A DNA stretch of 36,266 nt from a virus (Duplodnaviria > Heunggongvirae > Uroviricota > Caudoviricetes), in the IMG/VR virus record IMGVR_UViG_2529292919_000024, one strand, 5' to 3'. Shown piece after piece: positions 3,630 to 30,222 of the stretch. The position numbers and the translations under genes are program-made. The first letter of the stretch is position 1. Each line of letters opens with the position of its first letter. The notes under the pieces were generated by a model that searched no databases, had not been told where the DNA came from, and saw only the letters and a list, made by a program, of their open reading frames with translations.

Positions 3630-5039
3630 TTAAACACTCCCCACGTTGTACCATATTCCCCCAATCAATTTCTGAATTGGCCTTCTGGCAACAGTGTCGA
3701 CAAGATCATCCGCATTGCCGTTAATTGCGGCTGTTAAAACATAACCTGACGCATCGCCAAAGCCGTAGTCGCGCCATACGTTTTTATATTCAATGCTGCC
3801 AAGACGAATATCCCGAACGACATGATTATGCAGCCATGTGCTTAACCAGTTGTTTTCCCACACTGAACCATAAATATCGCCATTAGACGCAACTTGCGCA
3901 CCACTTCCCAGAGCGAAACCGCCATCCCTTTTAAAGATGAAGTCACCACCACCATCTGAACCGTTATTAATATGAACACCATCACCACCGTTATCTTTCC
4001 ACAAAAACATACGAATACTTCCGTCTTCGTTGGTGAATGTAATGTGGTGGCGGTAATTACTTTTTAATCTAAAACTGCTGCAATTAGATTCAATATCTTT
4101 ATAAAGATGTAATCCTAACCCATCAATATGTCCGATGCGCGAACCATTTGAATAGAAGCTAATAATACCATCTCCATCTTGCCTAAATCCGGTGTCGTTA
4201 TCTCCCAGAACAATGGAGTTTTCACCCAGTGCGTTATCAGTAGCACCAATAGCTAGACCTCCTTCAATTTTGGCCCCGTGGCTGACATATATAGCACCTG
4301 TTCTCAGATTTATAGCGAATGGCCTTAATGGGCCGATATCACCGTTTTCGCCTTGTCCTTCAGCCGTCGGAATGAAATGAAGAAAATCTTCTGAACGACG
4401 GAAAATAAGACCGAAGGCATCATTGAAAATTCGCAGCGCATTCACCGTGCCAATTTTCAGTTCTCCGGTCATTTTATCGCCGGAACGCTGAACGGCGTTA
4501 CCAGCCTTGTTTACCGTTTCCTGTAAACCGACGTTTTGGATAAACAGCGGCTTATTGGGAATATCTGCTCCGTTCCGGTCTTTTGCCAGACGGGCATTGG
4601 CATTATCCATCGCAATTTTCACCGCTTTTGCGGTGGCTGCCAGCGTTTCACTGGGGCTGTCAGTGGCACTGGTTAGCTGAACGAGTCCTTTTTTGTTCAG
4701 GCTGGCATCATAGATATCCAGATTTTCACGTGCTGTACGCTGTGCTGATACCCCGGCAATTTTAATTTCGCTGAGGTTATTTTTTATCAGCAGCGCGTTC
4801 TTGTTCATGATGGCTTTAATGGACAGTGCAAGCTGGTTTAATTTTGTTTTATCCGGTTGAATACCGGCTTCTTCCAGCGTGTTTAATAACTCCGCCTGCA
4901 CAATATTAAACCAGTCCATGCCGGGCCATGTGATAACATTATTCCCGTCACCTTCTGAAAACCAGCGAACGATAGCACTACGCTGGGCGGATACGGGCGG
5001 CATGACGGTTACGCCGCTGTCGTTATCAATATAAAACAT
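3630..5039 (-). CDS. S: Tail fibre protein S (constant Sc plus variable Sv)
   Basis: 469-aa ORF. The gix site lies inside it at 4518..4543, dividing a constant N-terminal part of about 165 aa from the variable part. Glycine-rich, fibre-like composition. Confidence 0.88.
4510..4543. repeat. gix inversion site / 34-bp inverted repeat (inside S)
   Basis: Reverse complement of 1566..1599 with one mismatch in the core and one outside; the central TC crossover dinucleotide is conserved. Confidence 0.9.
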
Positions 5040-5581
5040 TAGTTATCTCCGTCATGGTAAACAAATTTATAAATCTGATGCGCGGGTTTATATTTCTCCA
5101 GTAAACACTCCAGCGCACCCGATTCATAAACACGTAACGGCGTCAGAACATTATCCAGCACCGTTGCGTTGCGATAATTTTTAATACCGTAAATATTGAC
5201 CTGCGTAACCCACTGGCCTTCTGTGGAATCCGTCAGCCTGACGGTAAAACCGTACTGCGCAGCCAGCCATTCATAAAAGCGCCGACTTAGATTGCCGGTC
5301 ATACGCATTTTATTTGCGGCAGCCCGCTGGCGTTCTGACAGGGTGCCGTTTTCGCTGGTACAGTCCGGCAACCCCAGAAATGATTCCCACTCCCCCAGAT
5401 ACCAGCGGGATGTGGAAGGGAAACGCTCCCACAGCATTTGCCGCGCATCATCCGCCGCAGTGGCAATCACGTCACTGATGGCCTGCGCCAGCGCAGATAA
5501 TTTGCTGTCGGGGCTTTTATTCCAGGCAAGCCCTGACGGCAGTAATTGCAGAAAGGCCGTCTGATAGGGTGTTACAGCCAT
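5039..5581 (-). CDS. Tail/baseplate protein (Mu gp48-like)
   Basis: 180-aa ORF immediately upstream of S; its stop overlaps the S start (TAATG). Assigned by synteny. Confidence 0.7.
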   Translation of the reverse strand: MAVTPYQTAFLQLLPSGLAWNKSPDSKLSALAQAISDVIATAADDARQMLWERFPSTSRWYLGEWESFLGLPDCTSENGTLSERQRAAANKMRMTGNLSRRFYEWLAAQYGFTVRLTDSTEGQWVTQVNIYGIKNYRNATVLDNVLTPLRVYESGALECLLEKYKPAHQIYKFVYHDGDN

Positions 5582-6654
5582 TCAATTGTCCCCGGTGTTA
5601 ACAGTTCCGTATTCTCCGAACGCTGGATCTCTGTCGGGAAACGCACTTCAAAATCATCCAGACCGGTAACACCTGCCACCGCACGGATAATACGGGAGGG
5701 GGCAAGTGCGCCGCCCGGCGTCACCTCATTAAAAAACATGGTATTAATGGCGTGGGTAATAGCCTGTTTCAGTTCGGCTGTCTTCGGTGATATATAAATC
5801 CGTGGATTTACCGGCTTTGCCTTTGGCGCAAATACCGTGACATTTACACCATCAGGCTGCCCGACAATCAGGCCGGTGATCGGGTCAGTATGACCGGCGA
5901 TATAATCCGCCACGCGTTCCACGTCTGCCGGTTGTGGAAAAATATTGCTTCGGTTATCCATAACAAACGTCACCCCGACTGTGCCACCGCCTTTCCATGT
6001 CGGAAAACACCAGGCACGGGTAACGCCGCTGACTTCACGCGCCCAGCGAACATAATCAAACTGATTACCGCCGAACGGAGGATACTGGACACGATATTCC
6101 AGCCGTGACAGCAGCTCCGCTGCACTCTCAATATCAGCCCCACCGGAAAACCCTTTTACAGTGATGGCATCGGAAACAACACAGGCAACCGGGGTGATCA
6201 ACGTTAAAAGGGTATTCTCACCGGTATTTCCTGCCTCACCGGCAGCCAGTGCGGTAACGGTAATTTCCGTCGTTCCTGCACGGTCAATCACAATGGCATC
6301 AGCCAGGCTGTAAACCACACCATCAGCACGCTGCCAGCGTGTACCGGCAGGAATGGTGGTCGCTGCCGATGTGGTGACAGTCAGCGGGCCGCTGGCGGCT
6401 GTCGCCTGTTTGCGGCGCACGCCCCAGAACCGGCAGTGCTCCAGCAACTCATCTTCATCTGCTGTCGACGGGATAATCTGCCGTCCAACCCATGAAATAT
6501 GCTCGTGACAACCGGCAGCAAGGCCCGCCTGAGCATAAGCAATGGCACTCAGCGTTTTTTCACGGGCCTGAGGCCAGCTACCCGGCAGGCGCTGTTCAAT
6601 ATTCTGTTCTGTACGGGCAATCAGCGATGATAATGTCGGTGGTGAATAAGCCAT
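5572..6654 (-). CDS. Baseplate J-like wedge protein (Mu gp47-like)
   Basis: 360-aa ORF in the baseplate cluster, assigned by position and size. Confidence 0.75.
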   Translation of the reverse strand: MAYSPPTLSSLIARTEQNIEQRLPGSWPQAREKTLSAIAYAQAGLAAGCHEHISWVGRQIIPSTADEDELLEHCRFWGVRRKQATAASGPLTVTTSAATTIPAGTRWQRADGVVYSLADAIVIDRAGTTEITVTALAAGEAGNTGENTLLTLITPVACVVSDAITVKGFSGGADIESAAELLSRLEYRVQYPPFGGNQFDYVRWAREVSGVTRAWCFPTWKGGGTVGVTFVMDNRSNIFPQPADVERVADYIAGHTDPITGLIVGQPDGVNVTVFAPKAKPVNPRIYISPKTAELKQAITHAINTMFFNEVTPGGALAPSRIIRAVAGVTGLDDFEVRFPTEIQRSENTELLTPGTIEWL

Positions 6655-10293: not shown

Positions 10294-12366
10294 TTACCAG
10301 CCTGTAATGTAGTTATCGCCCGCGTAAATATTCAGCCCCATACCGTCCTCGGTGACGCGGGAACTGGTCAGACGTAACCCCTCGCCAAGTTCGACGCGCA
10401 GCGAGGCTTCCGCATTCACTTTTTGTTCCTGCGGTTCCTTATCCGGGGCCGTCCATTTCTGATACAGGTCGGTTACAAAACCGCCCAGATACTCCCCGGC
10501 GACACTGCCCAGCGTGGCACCGGCAACCGTACCCAGCGGTCCGGCAAGGCTGCCAACGGCACCGCCGAGCCATGCACCGGCTGTACTGCCAATTGCGCCT
10601 GCTTTTTCATGGGGTGACGCCTGCTCATCCATCAGGACGGGGGCAAGCTGGAGTGCCCCCATTACCGGGCCACCCAGACGTGACAACGCACGACCGGCAC
10701 CTTTCCCCATCCAGCCCAGCGCCCCGGCACCTTTTGTCATAACCCGACCGATCGCACTGCCTGCAAGTTTGTTTCCGATACCGGAAAACCACCCGCCAAC
10801 AGCACGCCCGGCATCAGCCAGCTTTCCGACCGTTCCCGTAACCAGTTGCCCGGCAGCACTGCCTGCAAGCCTGCTCAGAAGACCGGATTTACCGGGTAAA
10901 GGTAATGGTGCAGGCCGTGCTGTTACCGGTACGCCGGGTGGGGGTAATGCCAGTACAGGGCGTGGTGCAGGTAATGCCAGCGGCTGTGGCCCGGACAGCA
11001 ATAACGGCTGGCGGGGTAACAGCGGGGCCATTCTTCCGCCGCTCCGTCCGCGACGACCGCCGCCACTCCCGTAGCCACCAAATCCACGGGGCCAGTTGAT
11101 GACAAACACACGCTGAATGCCGATACCCTGCAACAGCGTCTCAGACGTCATGGCATCCGGGACCGGCAGACCTGCCTGCCCACGTTTGCGGTTTCGCATC
11201 CAGCGCCACATACGACGCCCGGTTTTAAACGGATAACTGGCAACCTGCCATGAGGGTTTTGCCACAGCCCAGCCTGCTCTCAGGGCTTTATTGGCAAGCC
11301 AGACAGACACCAGAACAGCAGCCAGTTTTTTCAGGCTGACAATATTCTGGTCAACCCATGCCAGCGCATCTTTACCCGGTTTCAGCCAGCGCCATAATTC
11401 CTGTGCCGCGATTTTTACCGTTCTGAACGTGGTCAGAAATTTCTGACCAATGTTTTCTGCCAGTGCGTCAAGTTCCCCGGATTTATCCGCCATGTCGTGC
11501 CAGTTAAGCACCCGGCGCATCTCGTTCTTGATTTCTTCAAAAGGGCCGCTGTTTGCCACCTTTATGCGAAATTCAAGCAGGTTGGCTTCCATCTGGGCGA
11601 ACATCCCGTCCCAGGAGTTCATCGCACTGGCCTGTGCACCTTTTGACTGTTCTGACAGCGTTCTGAATACCGTCAGAATGGATTTCATGCCCAGCTTGCC
11701 CTTTGTACCCAGATCACGGATTTTTTTAACGTCCGTTCCCGTTGCATCCGCCAGCGCCTGATAAACGTTGATACCGTAACCGGTCAGCAGGTTGGCATCC
11801 GCCGCTGTGATTTGCTGGCGGGCAAACATCTGTTTCAGTTGCAGTGAGGCACCCTGTGCAGTGGGTAAATCCCAGCCGTGCATGGCCCCCTGATCCTGCA
11901 ACATGGTGATGAACTGTTTCGTCTGTTCATCCGTCATGCCGAAGCCTTTCGACGAACGGATCTCATCAAGAACACCACTCAGCCCCCACGTGGTGTCCTT
12001 CGCGTTCTGCTTCGCCCAGGCCATCATGGCCTGCGCTCTGGCCTTATCGCCGTGATACAGCGAGTTCATGGCGATGATCTGCTGCTCACGCTGGGCGGCT
12101 GCACCAATAAACAGTTTATTGGCGGTGTAACCCACGCCAGCGATACCCAGCGCCCCGGCTGACAGCATTCGGAATGTACGGGTTGACAGAGCCCCCATTC
12201 TGTCAATGGCACCAGAAACGCGCACAACCTCCATACGCAGGGCACGAAGGGAACTTTGCCCGCTACGGGACAGGGCGTTTATCTGGTTCGAATACTGGCG
12301 GGAACGCCGGGAAAGATTGCCATTAAGATCAATAATGACAGACGCCTTTAAGCGTTTCCCGGTCAT
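10294..12366 (-). CDS. Tail tape measure protein
   Basis: 690-aa ORF with an alpha-helical N-terminal part and a Gly/Ala/Pro-rich low-complexity C-terminal third. Positioned after sheath, tube and chaperone. AGGAAA RBS before the ATG. Confidence 0.85.
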
Positions 12367-24196: not shown

Positions 24197-24483
24197 GCAC
24201 GGGGACGAGGACGCTTGACACCGGCAACGCGGGCACGACCTTCCGCCACATCCTGACCTCGGGAGGTCAGCGTTACGACATAAAAGCCGCGCAGGTTTTC
24301 CACGGTGACCAGTTGCTGCTCTGCCAGCCAGTCAATCTGGCCGCGAACCACATCGCGGGAAACGTTGTGTCCGTATGCATCCAGACAGTCCTGAAGGATG
24401 GATTCGTTTGCTTCGTTATTGCAGTCCATCAGGGAACGCAGGATGACCAGACGACGGTCTTCGGTCAGAATATCGTTAATCAT
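24193..24483 (-). CDS. Hypothetical protein (Mu gp26-like)
   Basis: 96-aa ORF with ATGA overlap; assigned by synteny. Confidence 0.55.
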   Translation of the reverse strand: MINDILTEDRRLVILRSLMDCNNEANESILQDCLDAYGHNVSRDVVRGQIDWLAEQQLVTVENLRGFYVVTLTSRGQDVAEGRARVAGVKRPRPRA

Positions 24484-24797
24484 GAATTACTCCGGTTTAC
24501 TGCGTTTTCAAGCAGCAGCTCCAGTTGATGGGAAAATGACTGCACCCGCTGGGACAGCACCCGGATATCGCCGGACAGCTCTGCAATTCGCAGGCGCATT
24601 TCGTGTACATCTTCTGTGCCAGGGATGCTGGCGTAGCGGGTTTCCATTTCGGTCATCCGGTTTTCAAGACGCTCCACACGCTCAGTGCTGGCAAAACTAC
24701 GACGCATTGCCCAGACGGCCCCACCGGCCACAACAGGCAACAGGTAAGGCCATAACGCTAAAACTGAAATCAAATCCATTATTCTGCTCCACGGCAC
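24480..24797 (-). CDS. Lysis-associated membrane protein (holin/releasin-like, Mu gp25-position)
   Basis: 105 aa with one N-terminal transmembrane segment (LISVLALWPYLLPVVAGGAVW) followed by a coiled-coil, located in the lysis cassette. Confidence 0.6.
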   Translation of the reverse strand: MPWSRIMDLISVLALWPYLLPVVAGGAVWAMRRSFASTERVERLENRMTEMETRYASIPGTEDVHEMRLRIAELSGDIRVLSQRVQSFSHQLELLLENAVNRSNS

Positions 24798-24973
24798 CAG
24801 TGGCAGTAGTTCGCCATCGGCTGCTGTCTCAGCACATCAGGCCGCAGCTCACGACCGCAACCGGCACACAATACAGGCGGGTCATACGCCGCCGGGCGGG
24901 GAATATCACGGGTATCCCCCTGCCAGAGTTCAGCGAGCAGCAGCGCCACCGCCCGGTTCTGGTCTTCGTTCAT
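24779..24973 (-). CDS. Small Cys-rich protein (zinc-ribbon-like)
   Basis: 64 aa with CAGC...CHWC motifs; overlaps the o-spanin 3' end. Confidence 0.5.
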   Translation of the reverse strand: MNEDQNRAVALLLAELWQGDTRDIPRPAAYDPPVLCAGCGRELRPDVLRQQPMANYCHWCRGAE

Positions 24974-25271
24974 AAATTTCTTTCCTTCGGGTCTCCTGTT
25001 CCCGGACTGATGCCTTGTCGCGGTTGCACTGCCCGAGCGCCATCAACAGGTCAGTATTCCAGAGAAGGGATGCTCCCCACGTCAGGGGCTGTGGCATGGG
25101 CGGAACGGGCGTTGCTTCCGTCAGTTCTGCATCAGTTTCGGGCAGGATCACCACCGATGGCACGGGTGCGTTTTTCGAGCTCCCGCAACCTGTCAGCAGC
25201 AACGGCAGGCACAGGACGAGTGCTGCAATTGTCACCGGTAATGGCGGTTGTAATTTTTTGTTTTGCATCAT
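24930..25271 (-). CDS. Outer-membrane spanin lipoprotein (o-spanin)
   Basis: Internal ATGATG start at 25271/25268. The signal peptide ends in the lipobox LLTGC and the mature part is proline-rich. Embedded in a +1 frame inside the i-spanin gene and extends beyond it. Confidence 0.7.
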   Translation of the reverse strand: MMQNKKLQPPLPVTIAALVLCLPLLLTGCGSSKNAPVPSVVILPETDAELTEATPVPPMPQPLTWGASLLWNTDLLMALGQCNRDKASVREQETRRKEIYERRPEPGGGAAAR

Positions 25272-25518
25272 GATGTTCTGTCTCGTCTGCCAGCCGCGCG
25301 GCACGATTTGCGGCACGGATAGCGGAAAATACCTGCATCGTCTGTTCCTGACCGTGTAACAACCATTCAGCCGTGTTGCGGGCCTGTTGCTCCGTCTGTA
25401 ATTCACGGCGCAGCGTCTGGTTATCGTGGCGGGTGCTGTCCAGCCTGTGCCACAACACCCCGGACAGAACGGCGGCAAACACGGCTGCCAGCAGTAAACT
25501 TTTACTGGCGAAGGTCAT
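25132..25518 (-). CDS. Inner-membrane spanin (i-spanin)
   Basis: 128 aa with an N-terminal transmembrane segment and a coiled-coil periplasmic domain; overlaps the lys 3' end. Confidence 0.7.
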   Translation of the reverse strand: MTFASKSLLLAAVFAAVLSGVLWHRLDSTRHDNQTLRRELQTEQQARNTAEWLLHGQEQTMQVFSAIRAANRAARLADETEHHDAKQKITTAITGDNCSTRPVPAVAADRLRELEKRTRAIGGDPARN

Positions 25519-25954
25519 CCGCCCCCCTGATATTCCAGATAGCCATTTCCACTTCGCGACGGTTCATCAGTCCTTTCCATTTATGGCCTGCGGCAAACAC
25601 CCAGCGGGCCATCTGGTCACGCGCTCCGGCGTAATCACCGGCATTGAGTTTTTTCAGCAGCGTTGATTTACTGAATGCGGTAACACCGGTGTTGAAAATA
25701 AACGTTGCCAGCGCCGTTTTCTGATATGGCGTCAGCGGCACCCTGACAAGACGATCGATTGCCGCATAAACCGGTTTTAAATCACTGTCGAGAAGAGCCA
25801 TACACTCCGCATGGCTGTAACGGCGCATTTCGATATCCGGCCCGGTATGTCCCACACAGACCGTAAGCACACCGGCAATATCGCGGTAAGGCATATAAGC
25901 GATATTTTCCAGATGGATCAGAGACTGACGGGTCATTTCCTGATAACCACCCAC
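25502..25954 (-). CDS. lys: Endolysin lysozyme domain; N-terminal SAR-like segment and ATG start are out of frame upstream
   Basis: Glu-8aa-Asp-5aa-Thr catalytic triad (HLENIAYMPYRDIAGVLT). The first in-frame start is GTG at 25954. Upstream in the same frame runs ...KLKAALLAATIAGGG with no start codon, while an ATG with a Shine-Dalgarno sequence at 26016 is in another frame. Confidence 0.8.
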   Translation of the reverse strand: MGGYQEMTRQSLIHLENIAYMPYRDIAGVLTVCVGHTGPDIEMRRYSHAECMALLDSDLKPVYAAIDRLVRVPLTPYQKTALATFIFNTGVTAFSKSTLLKKLNAGDYAGARDQMARWVFAAGHKWKGLMNRREVEMAIWNIRGADDLRQ

Positions 25955-26039
25955 ACCGCCACCGGCAATCGTTGCCGCCAGCAGTGCGGCTTTCAGTTTT
26001 TGGGTATCCCCGCCATCATGCTTCCCTGAAAAAATGCTC

Positions 26040-26110
26040 TGATGGCAGTCTAAAAAATCAGATGGCAGGTGCGGGATTATGGTGACAGGAAATAACCAGC
26101 AGGATGCCGG
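26040..26110 (-). promoter_or_regulatory. Plys-like late promoter
   Basis: Minus-strand sense CTGATTTTTTAGACT: a T6 run abutting the -10-like TAGACT, with an ATTAT/CCC-rich upstream element. Same architecture as the Pmom region. Confidence 0.5.
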
Positions 26111-26674: not shown

Positions 26675-27037
26675 TTACCCGAACAGACGAGCGCGAAAAC
26701 GAAAGGAGAGCCAGAACGTCAGCAATCCGGCCAGCGCCCAGATGACATGCTCAGGACCCGTTTTCAGTTGAGACGTTGCCATCACGGCTAATCCCAGCCC
26801 GGACAGACTCCCCAGCCAGGTCAGAGGCCAGACGAACCGGGCAAAATGTTCAGGCACCCGGCAGCTCATTATCAGCGCATCCAGACAATCAGCGGCAACA
26901 CATAAAGCAACACTGAAAACCGAGGCACAGCAAAACATCAGCGCGCGCCAGCCACAAAACAGACTTATCCACAATAACAGCGCCAGTAATACCACCGATA
27001 AAAAATCAGGCCACTGACGAGCAGAACGCTCAGACAT
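26675..27037 (-). CDS. Small integral membrane protein (3-4 transmembrane helices)
   Basis: 120 aa from the ATG at 27037, which has a GGAGA Shine-Dalgarno sequence; strongly hydrophobic. The ORF-track start at 27088 is an upstream extension. Confidence 0.6.
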   Translation of the reverse strand: MSERSARQWPDFLSVVLLALLLWISLFCGWRALMFCCASVFSVALCVAADCLDALIMSCRVPEHFARFVWPLTWLGSLSGLGLAVMATSQLKTGPEHVIWALAGLLTFWLSFRFRARLFG

Positions 27038-27248
27038 AATGTTTCTCCCTGTAAAGCAGGCAATGATGAAGAATTTCCGGCATATCAACTGACTGCCAGC
27101 CTTTCATGTAATAACTGCCGTGGGTGCCATCATGACCGGTATAGTCGCGGGGCGCAGGCCGTGGCCCACCGGCGACACGGTGCAAAACCTCCTGACGCAG
27201 CCGCTCACGTCTGCCAAGATGAAAGGATGCATTCCAGCCTTTACCCAT
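27030..27248 (-). CDS. Hypothetical protein, first gene of the middle operon
   Basis: 72-aa ORF with a GGGGGAA Shine-Dalgarno sequence 6 nt upstream of the ATG. Confidence 0.5.
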   Translation of the reverse strand: MGKGWNASFHLGRRERLRQEVLHRVAGGPRPAPRDYTGHDGTHGSYYMKGWQSVDMPEILHHCLLYREKHYV

Positions 27249-27294
27249 GATGATTTCCCCCGGTACGGTTATTCATCACAGGATATTGAGGACG

Positions 27295-27318
27295 TAAAAA
27301 AGCCGGATTAACCGGCTT
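27295..27318 (-). terminator. Early-operon intrinsic terminator (t9.2-like), possibly overlapping the middle-promoter activator site
   Basis: On the minus strand, AAGCCGG-TTAAT-CCGGCTT followed by a T run, 7 nt after the mor stop. The dyad could double as a Mor-binding element for the middle promoter. Confidence 0.65.
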
Positions 27319-27324
27319 TACTGT

Positions 27325-27714
27325 TTACAGAAGTGAGGGCTGGTACTGGCGGTATTTCAGCCGTCGCATCCGGCGAATGGCCTTGTAAACCGTATTGAAA
27401 GTGACACCATAACGGGTGGTCAGTTCGCTGACGTTGCGACCGTTAAAATCATTCCAGATACGCAAATCCCGAATCAGCGAGTCCAGAACCTGACCGCGTG
27501 GAATGTAGACCTGACCGCCGCCCAGATGCTTACAGATAGCCACAACAATCTCCAGTGAATGGGCAGGATCAACACCCAGCCGGGACAATTCCCCGCGTAG
27601 TAAATCGTTCAGCTCCGCCAGCAGTGCCGGAAAGCGTGACGTATCCTCTGCGGGATTGTCAAGATGTGCCAGGATGGTGTCATCCTGCAAATCACCAAAT
27701 AAATCTTCCGTCAT
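27325..27714 (-). CDS. mor: Middle operon regulator Mor
   Basis: 129 aa, matching Mu Mor in size and paralogous to C. Last early gene before the terminator. Confidence 0.9.
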   Translation of the reverse strand: MTEDLFGDLQDDTILAHLDNPAEDTSRFPALLAELNDLLRGELSRLGVDPAHSLEIVVAICKHLGGGQVYIPRGQVLDSLIRDLRIWNDFNGRNVSELTTRYGVTFNTVYKAIRRMRRLKYRQYQPSLL

Positions 27715-28262
27715 TGTGCCATCCTCCGCGTCTTTCTGGCATGGGCATAAGCCGCCGTCATGGCATCATAGCCGCGCAGTTCACGACCGGACGGACTGAC
27801 CGGCAATGGAAGCCCGTGACGGGAAAAGGCTTCACGAATACAGCGGATGTGCCACTGCTTGAGTGTTTCGAGGACTGTCAGCAGCGTGTCGCCATGACAC
27901 CACGCCAGTGTGGAAACGCCCTGTCCGCCGTTGCGTTTCGCGGTCAGGCGCTGAACATATTTATCCAGCGCCACATCACCGCCATCGGTAATAAAACCGT
28001 CTTCTGCCATCTGCTGCCAGACTTTGTACACCTTCTCGCGGGGCGTGACATGTTCCTTAAAGCGGCGACGTGGATGTTTATTCAGCTTCTTAAAGCCGCG
28101 TTCTTTCATTGCATCGAGCGTCTGTTCCAGTTGCGTAACCGTCAGCTCGCGGCAACTGGTTTTGCCCGTTTTCTGCATCAGAAAGGCGCGGTAAGTGTCA
28201 TCGTCGAGTTGTAGCTCCCGACGGGCGACATGGATTAATTTAATAAGCGATGTGCGATTCAT
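27711..28262 (-). CDS. gemA: GemA (gene expression modulation protein)
   Basis: 183 aa from the ATG at 28262 (MNRTSLIKLIHVARREL...), with ATGA overlap to mor. The ORF-track extension to 28430 is non-coding. Confidence 0.8.
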   Translation of the reverse strand: MNRTSLIKLIHVARRELQLDDDTYRAFLMQKTGKTSCRELTVTQLEQTLDAMKERGFKKLNKHPRRRFKEHVTPREKVYKVWQQMAEDGFITDGGDVALDKYVQRLTAKRNGGQGVSTLAWCHGDTLLTVLETLKQWHIRCIREAFSRHGLPLPVSPSGRELRGYDAMTAAYAHARKTRRMAQ

Positions 28263-28292
28263 TTGCTCACCTCTCATATTAAGGAATGAGAT

Positions 28293-28709
28293 ATGAAAAT
28301 TGATTATGACGAGATAGCCAGAATATTTGATGTTTTTCTGGAGGCCGACACCGCATTCATTCGACTGGAAGATGTCGGCTGGGATCGTTCTCAGCGGCAC
28401 AGCGACAGCCATCAGAAGCTGGTTTTCCATCTTCTGTTGCTGGTTGAAAATGGTTTTATCAGCAACAGATATCTGGAAACAGGCACCGCAAAAAGCATTG
28501 GTCTCACCCCAACAAGCCTCGGATATTCATATTCAGGCACCAGTGTCAGACTCACACAAGATGGTCATGATTTTGCGAAAGCACTACATCAAAAACCAAT
28601 TCTTGAGCGCATAAAACAGGACCTTGCCGACGCCCCGATGACGCTCGTAACAGACGTCGGCAAACAGTGGTTAACCTCGTTTCTTAAAAAGAAACTCGGG
28701 ATTGAATAG
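28293..28709 (+). CDS. Opposite-strand hypothetical protein, DUF2513-like small winged-helix-type protein (candidate moron/accessory gene)
   Basis: 138-aa ORF with a strong RBS (AAGGAATGAGAT then ATG) and protein-like composition. It is the only plus-strand gene between c and the G segment. It diverges from gemA with 30 bp between the starts and overlaps the upstream early gene's 3' end convergently by 39 nt. Confidence 0.65.
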   Translation: MKIDYDEIARIFDVFLEADTAFIRLEDVGWDRSQRHSDSHQKLVFHLLLLVENGFISNRYLETGTAKSIGLTPTSLGYSYSGTSVRLTQDGHDFAKALHQKPILERIKQDLADAPMTLVTDVGKQWLTSFLKKKLGIE

Positions 28710-28982
28710 TTCCCGGTTCATACGTTGCAGCACATCAAGGGCGGCGACAGCCGCCACTTTATCGTTACCATCAGCAATAGTGCGGAGATTTTCAATAATC
28801 CAGTGAGGACTCAGTGACTCAGCAATAATGCCAAACCGGTACGCCATGACTTCATCAATAGCTTTTTCATGAGACGGCTCATATACAAAATTCACAAAGT
28901 CATGCACTTCTTTTTTCGGCAAACCACCGGCAATCAGCAGGGCGGCAAGCTCTTCTGATTTTGAAAATACACCATTATTCAT
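28671..28982 (-). CDS. Hypothetical early protein (Mu gp15-position)
   Basis: 103 aa from the ATG at 28982, which has an AAGGTGAG Shine-Dalgarno sequence. The ORF-track GTG at 28997 is a short extension. Confidence 0.6.
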   Translation of the reverse strand: MNNGVFSKSEELAALLIAGGLPKKEVHDFVNFVYEPSHEKAIDEVMAYRFGIIAESLSPHWIIENLRTIADGNDKVAAVAALDVLQRMNRELFNPEFLFKKRG

Positions 28983-29166: not shown

Positions 29167-29683
29167 TGTTTACCTCCGCCTGTTTTTGCGCCCGGATAAA
29201 TTCGTCAGAAAGGATTTCAGTCATGCGGCCCTGTGCGGGAGTCATCCCTGTCATGACGTAAATCACATCACCAACACGGAACCACCGGAGCGGGCCGAAT
29301 ATTGTTGCGCTGAAATCCAGTCCCAGTGCGGGTAAGAGAGCGTCAGTACGGGCATAAGTGACCGGAATATTCTCCTGCCATATTTTCGCCAGCTCTTTTG
29401 ACTGCTCCCGCAGATGTGCAGGAATGCGCGATGTTCTTGGCCTGCAACTGTTACCTGATGCGGAGCGTTGTACAGTCCACAACTCCGGCGAGAAAGGTCG
29501 CTCATTCCCCGGAAAATTCACGCCATGAAAATGACGCCCACCAATACCTGTGCTGAATACTGACCGGCAACCACAACCCAGAACCTTATCAAGATGGCGG
29601 GCTTCTTCGCGTAGTTTCAGGCAGTCCGCCATAAACTGGTCCCATGCCAGCAGTGCTGCGGGATTTGACGTTTTAAAAAACAT
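29153..29683 (-). CDS. Hypothetical early protein (Mu gp13-position)
   Basis: 176 aa from the ATG at 29683, with AGGAGG upstream and a TGATG junction to the preceding gene. Confidence 0.6.
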   Translation of the reverse strand: MFFKTSNPAALLAWDQFMADCLKLREEARHLDKVLGCGCRSVFSTGIGGRHFHGVNFPGNERPFSPELWTVQRSASGNSCRPRTSRIPAHLREQSKELAKIWQENIPVTYARTDALLPALGLDFSATIFGPLRWFRVGDVIYVMTGMTPAQGRMTEILSDEFIRAQKQAEVNNGKQ

Positions 29684-30222
29684 CACGCCACCTCCTGCAC
29701 CGCTGCGGGAGCCGGAGAACAATCAAGAATGAGATAACGCAGTACATGGTCGGTGATATTCCAGGCGCTTGAACTGCAAATAAACCGCCCCAGCCGGATA
29801 TCGATATAAGCCATCACAAAACGGGGCATTCCCTGTTTGCACATCTCGTCATCCACTTCTGCAACGATGTGAACGGACTCACAGGTCAGCACGCCTGTTG
29901 CAAACTCTTTTGCCAGCGCGGGGATAGTATTACCTTCCACCCAGGGTAATGAGCGACGCCAGTTGCACCACACCGCATCATCAACAGCAGGCTGCTCAGT
30001 TGTGTTTCGTCTTACAGGCGGCGTCGGACGCGGGCGCGGAACGTCATAAAATCCGTTGCATTCGGTGAGCACTCCGGCATCAACCGCATCAACCGCATCA
30101 CGCAGGAAATACACCATTGACGAGGGCAGCATATTCATTTTTTCAGCCAGAACCCCGCAGGTCAGGCGTCCGTAAGCCCGTAATAATGTGCTGACACCAT
30201 TCAGAATTTTTGCATCAACCAT
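29683..30222 (-). CDS. Hypothetical early protein (Mu gp12-position)
   Basis: 179-aa ORF downstream of gam. Confidence 0.6.
   Translation of the reverse strand: MVDAKILNGVSTLLRAYGRLTCGVLAEKMNMLPSSMVYFLRDAVDAVDAGVLTECNGFYDVPRPRPTPPVRRNTTEQPAVDDAVWCNWRRSLPWVEGNTIPALAKEFATGVLTCESVHIVAEVDDEMCKQGMPRFVMAYIDIRLGRFICSSSAWNITDHVLRYLILDCSPAPAAVQEVA

Follow-up and report, generated by a model that had tools for sequence, protein, structure and literature searches.

Is the endolysin gene of a Mu-like phage genome broken, is it read in two frames, or has it been written one nucleotide short? The 36,266-nucleotide stretch of DNA analysed here (the window) represents a Mu-like (Muvirus) genome in reversed orientation, and its two ends coincide exactly with the stop codons of mom and of the repressor gene. 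In its lys gene, the start codon and the signal-anchor-release (SAR) segment lie in different frames as deposited, and one inserted A joins them. The initial annotation offered three unranked readings of this arrangement: a lysis-inactivating mutation in a defective, domesticated prophage, a homopolymer sequencing error, and an unusual mode of expression. The evidence presented below favors the second of these, and we conclude that the apparent frameshift most likely reflects a homopolymer that was called too short in the deposited draft, with A5 written for A6.

The apparently split lys gene in its lysis cassette

On the minus strand, positions 26027..25993 read AGGGAAGC followed by ATG ATG GCG GGG ATA CCC AAA AAC TGA, and the elements of the locus are the following:

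26027..26021, minus strand: Shine-Dalgarno-like AGGGAAG
26019..26014, minus strand: ATG ATG start pair of lys
25993..26019, minus strand: mini-ORF MMAGIPKN-stop, i.e. the true lys start and codons 2-7, with a TGA end made by the frameshift
25997..26001, minus strand: A5 run, the site of the 1-nt deficit, corresponding to the Lys6-Lys7 codons in relatives
25943..25996, minus strand: SAR segment L8..Y25, in the -1 frame and without a start codon of its own
25502..25954, minus strand: 150-aa ORF starting at GTG, a complete GH24 lysozyme domain (PF00959)

All coordinates that had been given for the ATGATG pair with its Shine-Dalgarno sequence and for the mini-ORF that it opens proved correct; the stop codon of the mini-ORF is TGA at 25995..25993, and the start codon used in Mu corresponds to the second ATG (26016..26014). 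Past the A-run, the -1 frame reads LKAALLAATIAGGGVGGYQ and continues into the intact GH24 lysozyme domain, its codons CTG AAA GCC ... yielding the peptide LKAALLAATIAGGGVGGYQEM... As had been claimed, this frame has no start before the GTG at 25954: ATG, GTG and TTG are absent between the upstream TAG and that codon. SAR residues 10-25 have a mean Kyte-Doolittle value of 1.33 and consist to 69% of G/A/T/S, and the description of a Gly/Ala-rich, SAR-like segment cut off from its start by a 1-nt deficit in the A-run agrees with the anatomy of a Mu-type SAR endolysin. The Phage_lysozyme domain (PF00959) was matched full-length in Pfam with E = 7e-38 in the 150-aa ORF as well as in the protein repaired by one A, and the triad E-X8-D-X5-T is complete (E37, D46 and T52 in repaired numbering, the E37 codon being 25909..25907 on the minus strand within the GTG ORF).

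To place the locus in its surroundings, we mapped the features of Mu AF083977 (promoter 10403-10469, RBS 10469-10471) onto the window, and the neighbors of lys are these:

26027..26093, minus strand: region of the C-activated late promoter Plys, ending at the SD-like AGG, by ungapped alignment to AF083977
26111..26533, minus strand: late activator C (Mor family), intact
25132..25518, minus strand: i-spanin (gp23 homologue), overlapping the lys stop
24930..25235, minus strand: o-spanin (gp23.1 / LysC-like), inside the i-spanin gene
24480..24779, minus strand: releasin gp25 homologue (DUF2730, Pfam), intact, with an identical protein on at least 1000 contigs

Thus, the context of a lysis cassette is present, with Plys and C upstream and the spanin pair and the DUF2730 releasin downstream. 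Judged by its sequence, the locus is gene 22 of Mu, encoding the predicted SAR endolysin gp22 (Lys): with Mu gp22 (AAF01099.1) and D108 Lys it shares the locus, promoter, start context, SAR segment and E-X8-D-X5-T triad as well as the neighbors on both sides. In AF083977, gene 22 is annotated as 'SAR endolysin' of 171 aa from the second ATG with the catalytic residues E37, D46 and T52, so that the length of 171 aa given for Mu Lys was right, counted from that ATG. The fusion that one extra A had been said to create is 172 aa long from the first ATG. An alignment to Mu lys, as had been proposed, shows that Mu has CC+A7 at the tract and that the repaired window protein is a single residue apart from Mu gp22 (V15A); its UniRef name, C9DGM9_BPD10, is that of the D108 protein. 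As deposited, the window differs from Mu gp22 in having the start and K6 in one frame and the SAR segment and catalytic domain in another, and the mini-ORF reads K6 N7 stop where relatives read K6 K7.

That gp22 is an SAR endolysin has been demonstrated experimentally in Mu (Chamblee et al. 2022, PMC9239132); according to the same work, Mu has no holin, release of gp22 requires gp25, Lys6 and Lys7 confer this dependence on gp25, and gp22 knock-outs abolish lysis. The A-run at the 5' end of lys is long because AAA-AAA encodes these two lysines. P1 Lyz and R21 of phage 21 likewise combine an N-terminal, weakly hydrophobic, Gly/Ala-rich SAR helix with a muralytic domain and are Sec-exported, membrane-tethered and inactive before release (PMC9239132), and the lys product would by analogy be built in the same way; pinholins release P1 Lyz and R21, whereas K6 and K7 make the Mu type dependent on the releasin gp25. 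Hence, in an in-frame gene, the C-activated promoter Plys would drive expression of a 171-aa protein whose Lys6-Lys7 N-terminus and Gly/Ala-rich SAR helix would direct Sec export and inactive tethering in the inner membrane; the releasin gp25 would then free the endolysin for degradation of the cell wall, and the spanins gp23/gp23.1 would finish lysis.

The A-tract in relatives and in a second assembly

We surveyed the alleles of the tract by pattern scans of IMG/VR (19 matches) and metagenomes (7 matches) together with fetched records. CC+A7 (ATA CCA AAA AAA CTG), the allele of Mu, D108, SfMu, Tongde and E. coli N1286, was present in 33 of 35 sequences, and the synonymous CCC+A6 in the remaining two (IMG/VR contigs L017 and L022). 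CCC+A5 was seen in the window alone, making it the sole outlier against 35 homologous sequences. L017 is also the closest relative in the survey (99.57% over 2.6 kb). Because the window is one A short of the CCC+A6 allele, the proposed repair by a single A is the correct one for its sub-lineage; and the finding of in-frame A6 or A7 in relatives is what the initial annotation had named as the mark of an assembly error. The repaired protein occurs verbatim on at least 1000 public contigs (as 'MULTISPECIES: lysozyme [Enterobacteriaceae]') and the truncated 150-aa form on 7-13. Because the repaired protein is Mu gp22 with V15A and is found on at least 1000 contigs, the split gene is no matter of chance. 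A scan of GTDB species representatives gave no match to the tract pattern, and a look-up of the 144-aa form starting at ATG returned contig-edge truncations only, which are uninformative on the tract.

The tract also varies elsewhere. Other assemblies of the A7 lineage have A6 or A8 here, and a CC+A6 frameshift occurs at this site in two modern read sets that are clean in other respects (L038 and L043). Frameshifts of lys are also annotated at other homopolymers in finished genomes: in E. coli RM8082 (L002, ~848), lys is 'frameshifted' by A6->A5 in the LLKKL codons, and in FDAARGOS_1058 (L053, ~974) by G6->G7 near the C-terminus. The common allele itself, CC-A-AAA-AAA-CTG, contains a perfect slippery heptamer in the zero frame, A-AAA-AAA (e.g. 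L007 10480-10560), with a stable hairpin ~6 nt past it and a -1 frame that is open for roughly 70 codons; the presence of heptamer and hairpin in the wild-type allele may be a coincidence of KK codons and GC-rich SAR coding. In short-read assemblies (L046-L051, L039, L042 and L044), many contigs are broken within lys or a short distance upstream of it, and several of them begin exactly at the ATG of window position 25936. These breaks probably stem from graph branching between co-resident Mu-like prophages together with the selection made by looking up the exact protein, and they give rise to false 'truncated lysozyme' proteins in databases.

The window derives from contig AIEY01000058.1 of the draft GCA_000249115.2 (100% identity over 6.45 kb in the look-up of the 150-aa ORF). 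Its exact MuA and exact 690-aa tape-measure protein (TMP) were found, among ~15 billion proteins, only on this source and on one Logan contig, SRR094164_234 (34,743 bp, run SRR094164), in which the MuA gene is nucleotide-identical over 1989/1989 positions. The two genes lie as follows:

AIEY01000058.1: TMP 41899-43971, MuA 64944-66932, gap 20,973
SRR094164_234: TMP 3855-5927, MuA 26902-28890, gap 20,975

In the window itself the gap is likewise 20,973 (33339 - 12366). Over window 12367-33338, SRR094164_234, which was re-assembled independently from raw reads, thus exceeds the source by exactly 2 nt, a difference that ORF positions place within this ~21-kb interval; the interval contains both contractions that are private to the prophage, the one in lys and one in the T-run at the middle promoter Pm described below. 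SRR094164_234 spans lys, yet the 13 contigs that carry the truncated 150-aa ORF do not include it (13 blocks corresponding to 13 contigs, with both contigs of the 20-50 kb class accounted for). By comparison, all five Logan contigs shown to have a frameshift at the tract (L037, L038, L040, L041 and L043) do have a 150-aa call. Lacking the truncated ORF and being 2 nt longer, SRR094164_234 probably does not reproduce the lys lesion. The simplest reading is that the SRR094164 reads have an in-frame A6 at lys and an A7 in the Pm T-run, and we infer that the length discrepancy between the assemblies lies exactly at the lys A-run. We found no second NCBI assembly with the MuA of the window, and SRR094164 is therefore probably the source isolate's own run.

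A census of indels on the source contig

Using the rare exact MuA and tail-fibre proteins, we retrieved the host flanks of the prophage. The host is an E2348/69-like E. coli, and the Mu-like prophage of ~36.7 kb is inserted into the 3' end of php (yhfV), with yhfU as its other neighbor; its ends are canonical for Mu and are flanked by a 5-bp target duplication, GTGAA (L066 8700-8770; L067 15100-15175); in EPEC O127:H6 E2348/69 the flanks are nearly identical and the insertion is absent. All Mu genes other than lys have Mu-like lengths. Because these genes, the ends and the 5-bp duplication are intact, the suggestion of a defective, domesticated prophage is unsupported. In the homologue of gp11 (29683-30222, minus strand), we noted an in-frame 9-bp tandem duplication, CAACCGCAT, at ~30077-30100 in comparison with Mu, SfMu and N1286; the protein that it gives, of 179 aa, is on only three public contigs.

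Where the window aligns collinearly with Mu (24 kb, 98% identity), 1-nt indels occur at two sites only, one in the lys run and one at 27296-27301:

27296..27301, plus strand: second private 1-nt contraction, A6 in the window and A7 in 16/16 relatives

On the Mu strand, this second site is the T-run right after the dyad AAAGCCGG-TTAAT-CCGGCTTT, a dyad that forms the early-terminator and Mor-site region of Pm, the middle promoter. Were this contraction real, it would bring the activator site 1 bp nearer to the -10 element; it is probably an undercall like that in lys. Both differences of the window, at the lys tract and at the A-run where it is the outlier among 17, are the loss of a single A. 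In the host flank, 14,979 bp compared with finished E2348/69 contain 4 SNPs and one indel, A6->A5 in the nirD-nirC spacer (AIEY01000058.1 ~25,929; L067 ~20716), and a search of 5,426 finished E. coli genomes gave no instance of the A5 allele of this spacer. In 51 kb of the source contig we thus count three contractions by one A that are private to it (lys, the Pm T-run and the nirD-nirC spacer), and we found no other small indels there. Because the nearest finished prophage is only 98.6% identical to the window, the ratio of indels to SNPs inside the prophage cannot discriminate between the explanations.

Undercall, mutation or recoding

A homopolymer undercall is in keeping with what has been observed in comparable data. 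The contemporaneous run SRR096911 has several homopolymer frameshifts in one Mu-like prophage (in lys, spanin and MuA), and another group has flagged suspicious, unexplained frameshifts in drafts of the DEC collection, whose accession block adjoins AIEY; going by the order of accessions, in which AIGK is DEC9A and AIGS is DEC10D, AIEY would fall in the DEC1/DEC2 block. The case also matches the homopolymer-frameshift 'pseudogenes' of draft and long-read assemblies, with a 1-base change in an A/T or G run of at least 6 that is private to one assembly in a gene that is otherwise conserved; we see no difference of substance. Against an undercall counts that A-runs are natural hot spots of slippage. 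Looking at the SRR096911_94 prophage (L070; 98.3% identical to the window) in its own right, we note that MuA is split into 580 + 69 aa, that lys has CC+A6 and that an A-run deletion joins the spanin genes in a single 195-aa call, so that either the reads are noisy or the prophage is really in decay.

A recent loss of function, in which the CCC-A6 tract lost one A by replication slippage in the isolate itself, we consider unlikely. Translation from the lys start would then stop after 8 codons, and any products from the GTG at 25954 or the ATG at 25936 would lack the SAR segment and hence be cytoplasmic. The deposited A5 is what this explanation predicts; moreover, the A6 and A8 variants within the A7 lineage mark the tract as a mutational hot spot, the frameshifts in finished genomes at two other homopolymers add to its plausibility, and the phenotype would be that of the gp22 knock-outs, which do not lyse in a phage without a holin (PMC9239132). 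However, it has to accommodate two further private single-A contractions on the same contig, one of them in a host spacer with an allele seen in 0/5,426 genomes, and a prophage that shows no other decay. It is also at odds with the only other data set that has this prophage, which is 2 nt longer and without the truncated ORF. SRR094164 could come from a sister isolate rather than from the same one, although the failure to find a second NCBI assembly with this MuA argues for the same strain. Internal initiation at GTG 25954 or ATG 25936 was also considered as a rescue and rejected: the product has no SAR segment, and Mu has no holin (PMC9239132). With no SAR-bearing enzyme, and with no holin to serve a cytoplasmic lysozyme, a real deletion would therefore leave a lysis-null but otherwise competent prophage. 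We regard it as very improbable that the Lys6-Lys7 tract is a slippage contingency locus that reversibly switches lysis off, with the window as an off-variant and leaky -1 frameshifting that might trickle out enzyme. The clean read sets L038 and L043 with A6 in the A7 lineage, and the occurrence of A8, speak for such a locus; on the other side, frameshifted calls make up ~1% or fewer of carriers, several of them stem from data that are visibly noisy, and the SRR094164 re-assembly contradicts the case of the window itself.

The last alternative accepts the split as real and has ribosomes bypass it by frameshifting to make a little full-length SAR endolysin, through slippage by -1, or through +2 re-pairing of tRNA-Lys, on CCC-AAA-AAC while UGA occupies the A site, with help from a downstream hairpin. 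A stable hairpin (-39.7 kcal/mol, z = -3.4) does begin ~6 nt past the run, and ribosomes might plausibly pause and slip where a stop codon follows an A-run, as in dnaX. As in dnaX-type -1 frameshifting (A-AAA-AAG plus hairpin), an A-rich run is followed ~6 nt on by a stable hairpin; in contrast to that system, the window allele has neither a canonical heptamer nor conservation, and no second functional product is required. Specifically, the zero frame CCC AAA AAC UGA offers C-AAA-AAC, which is no X-XXY-YYZ heptamer, and the hairpin is the GC-rich Gly/Ala coding sequence of the SAR segment that all in-frame relatives also have. The arrangement is confined to one assembly and conserved in none of >60 related sequences, the two-frame configuration being found in 0/35 pattern-matched sequences and in 0/5 further terminase-matched assemblies; frameshifted alleles elsewhere differ from that of the window and occur sporadically. 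Transcriptional slippage is rejected because an A5 run is too short for it to be efficient. Because no relative has the configuration and the heptamer is not canonical, the idea of an unusual expression mode is left unsupported, and we judge such recoding to be extremely improbable.

If the frameshift were real, the prophage would replicate and kill its host and yet release no progeny, and it would be a natural mutant in the two lysine codons that govern releasin dependence (Chamblee et al., PMC9239132). Under the homopolymer undercall that we favor, the case is a worked example of how a 'pseudogene' of a 2012-era draft can be exposed without reads, by censuses of private indels, comparison of the host flanks with a finished genome, and comparison of length with a read-level re-assembly. 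We therefore suggest that lys of the window be annotated as an intact SAR endolysin, an ordinary and well-known gene.
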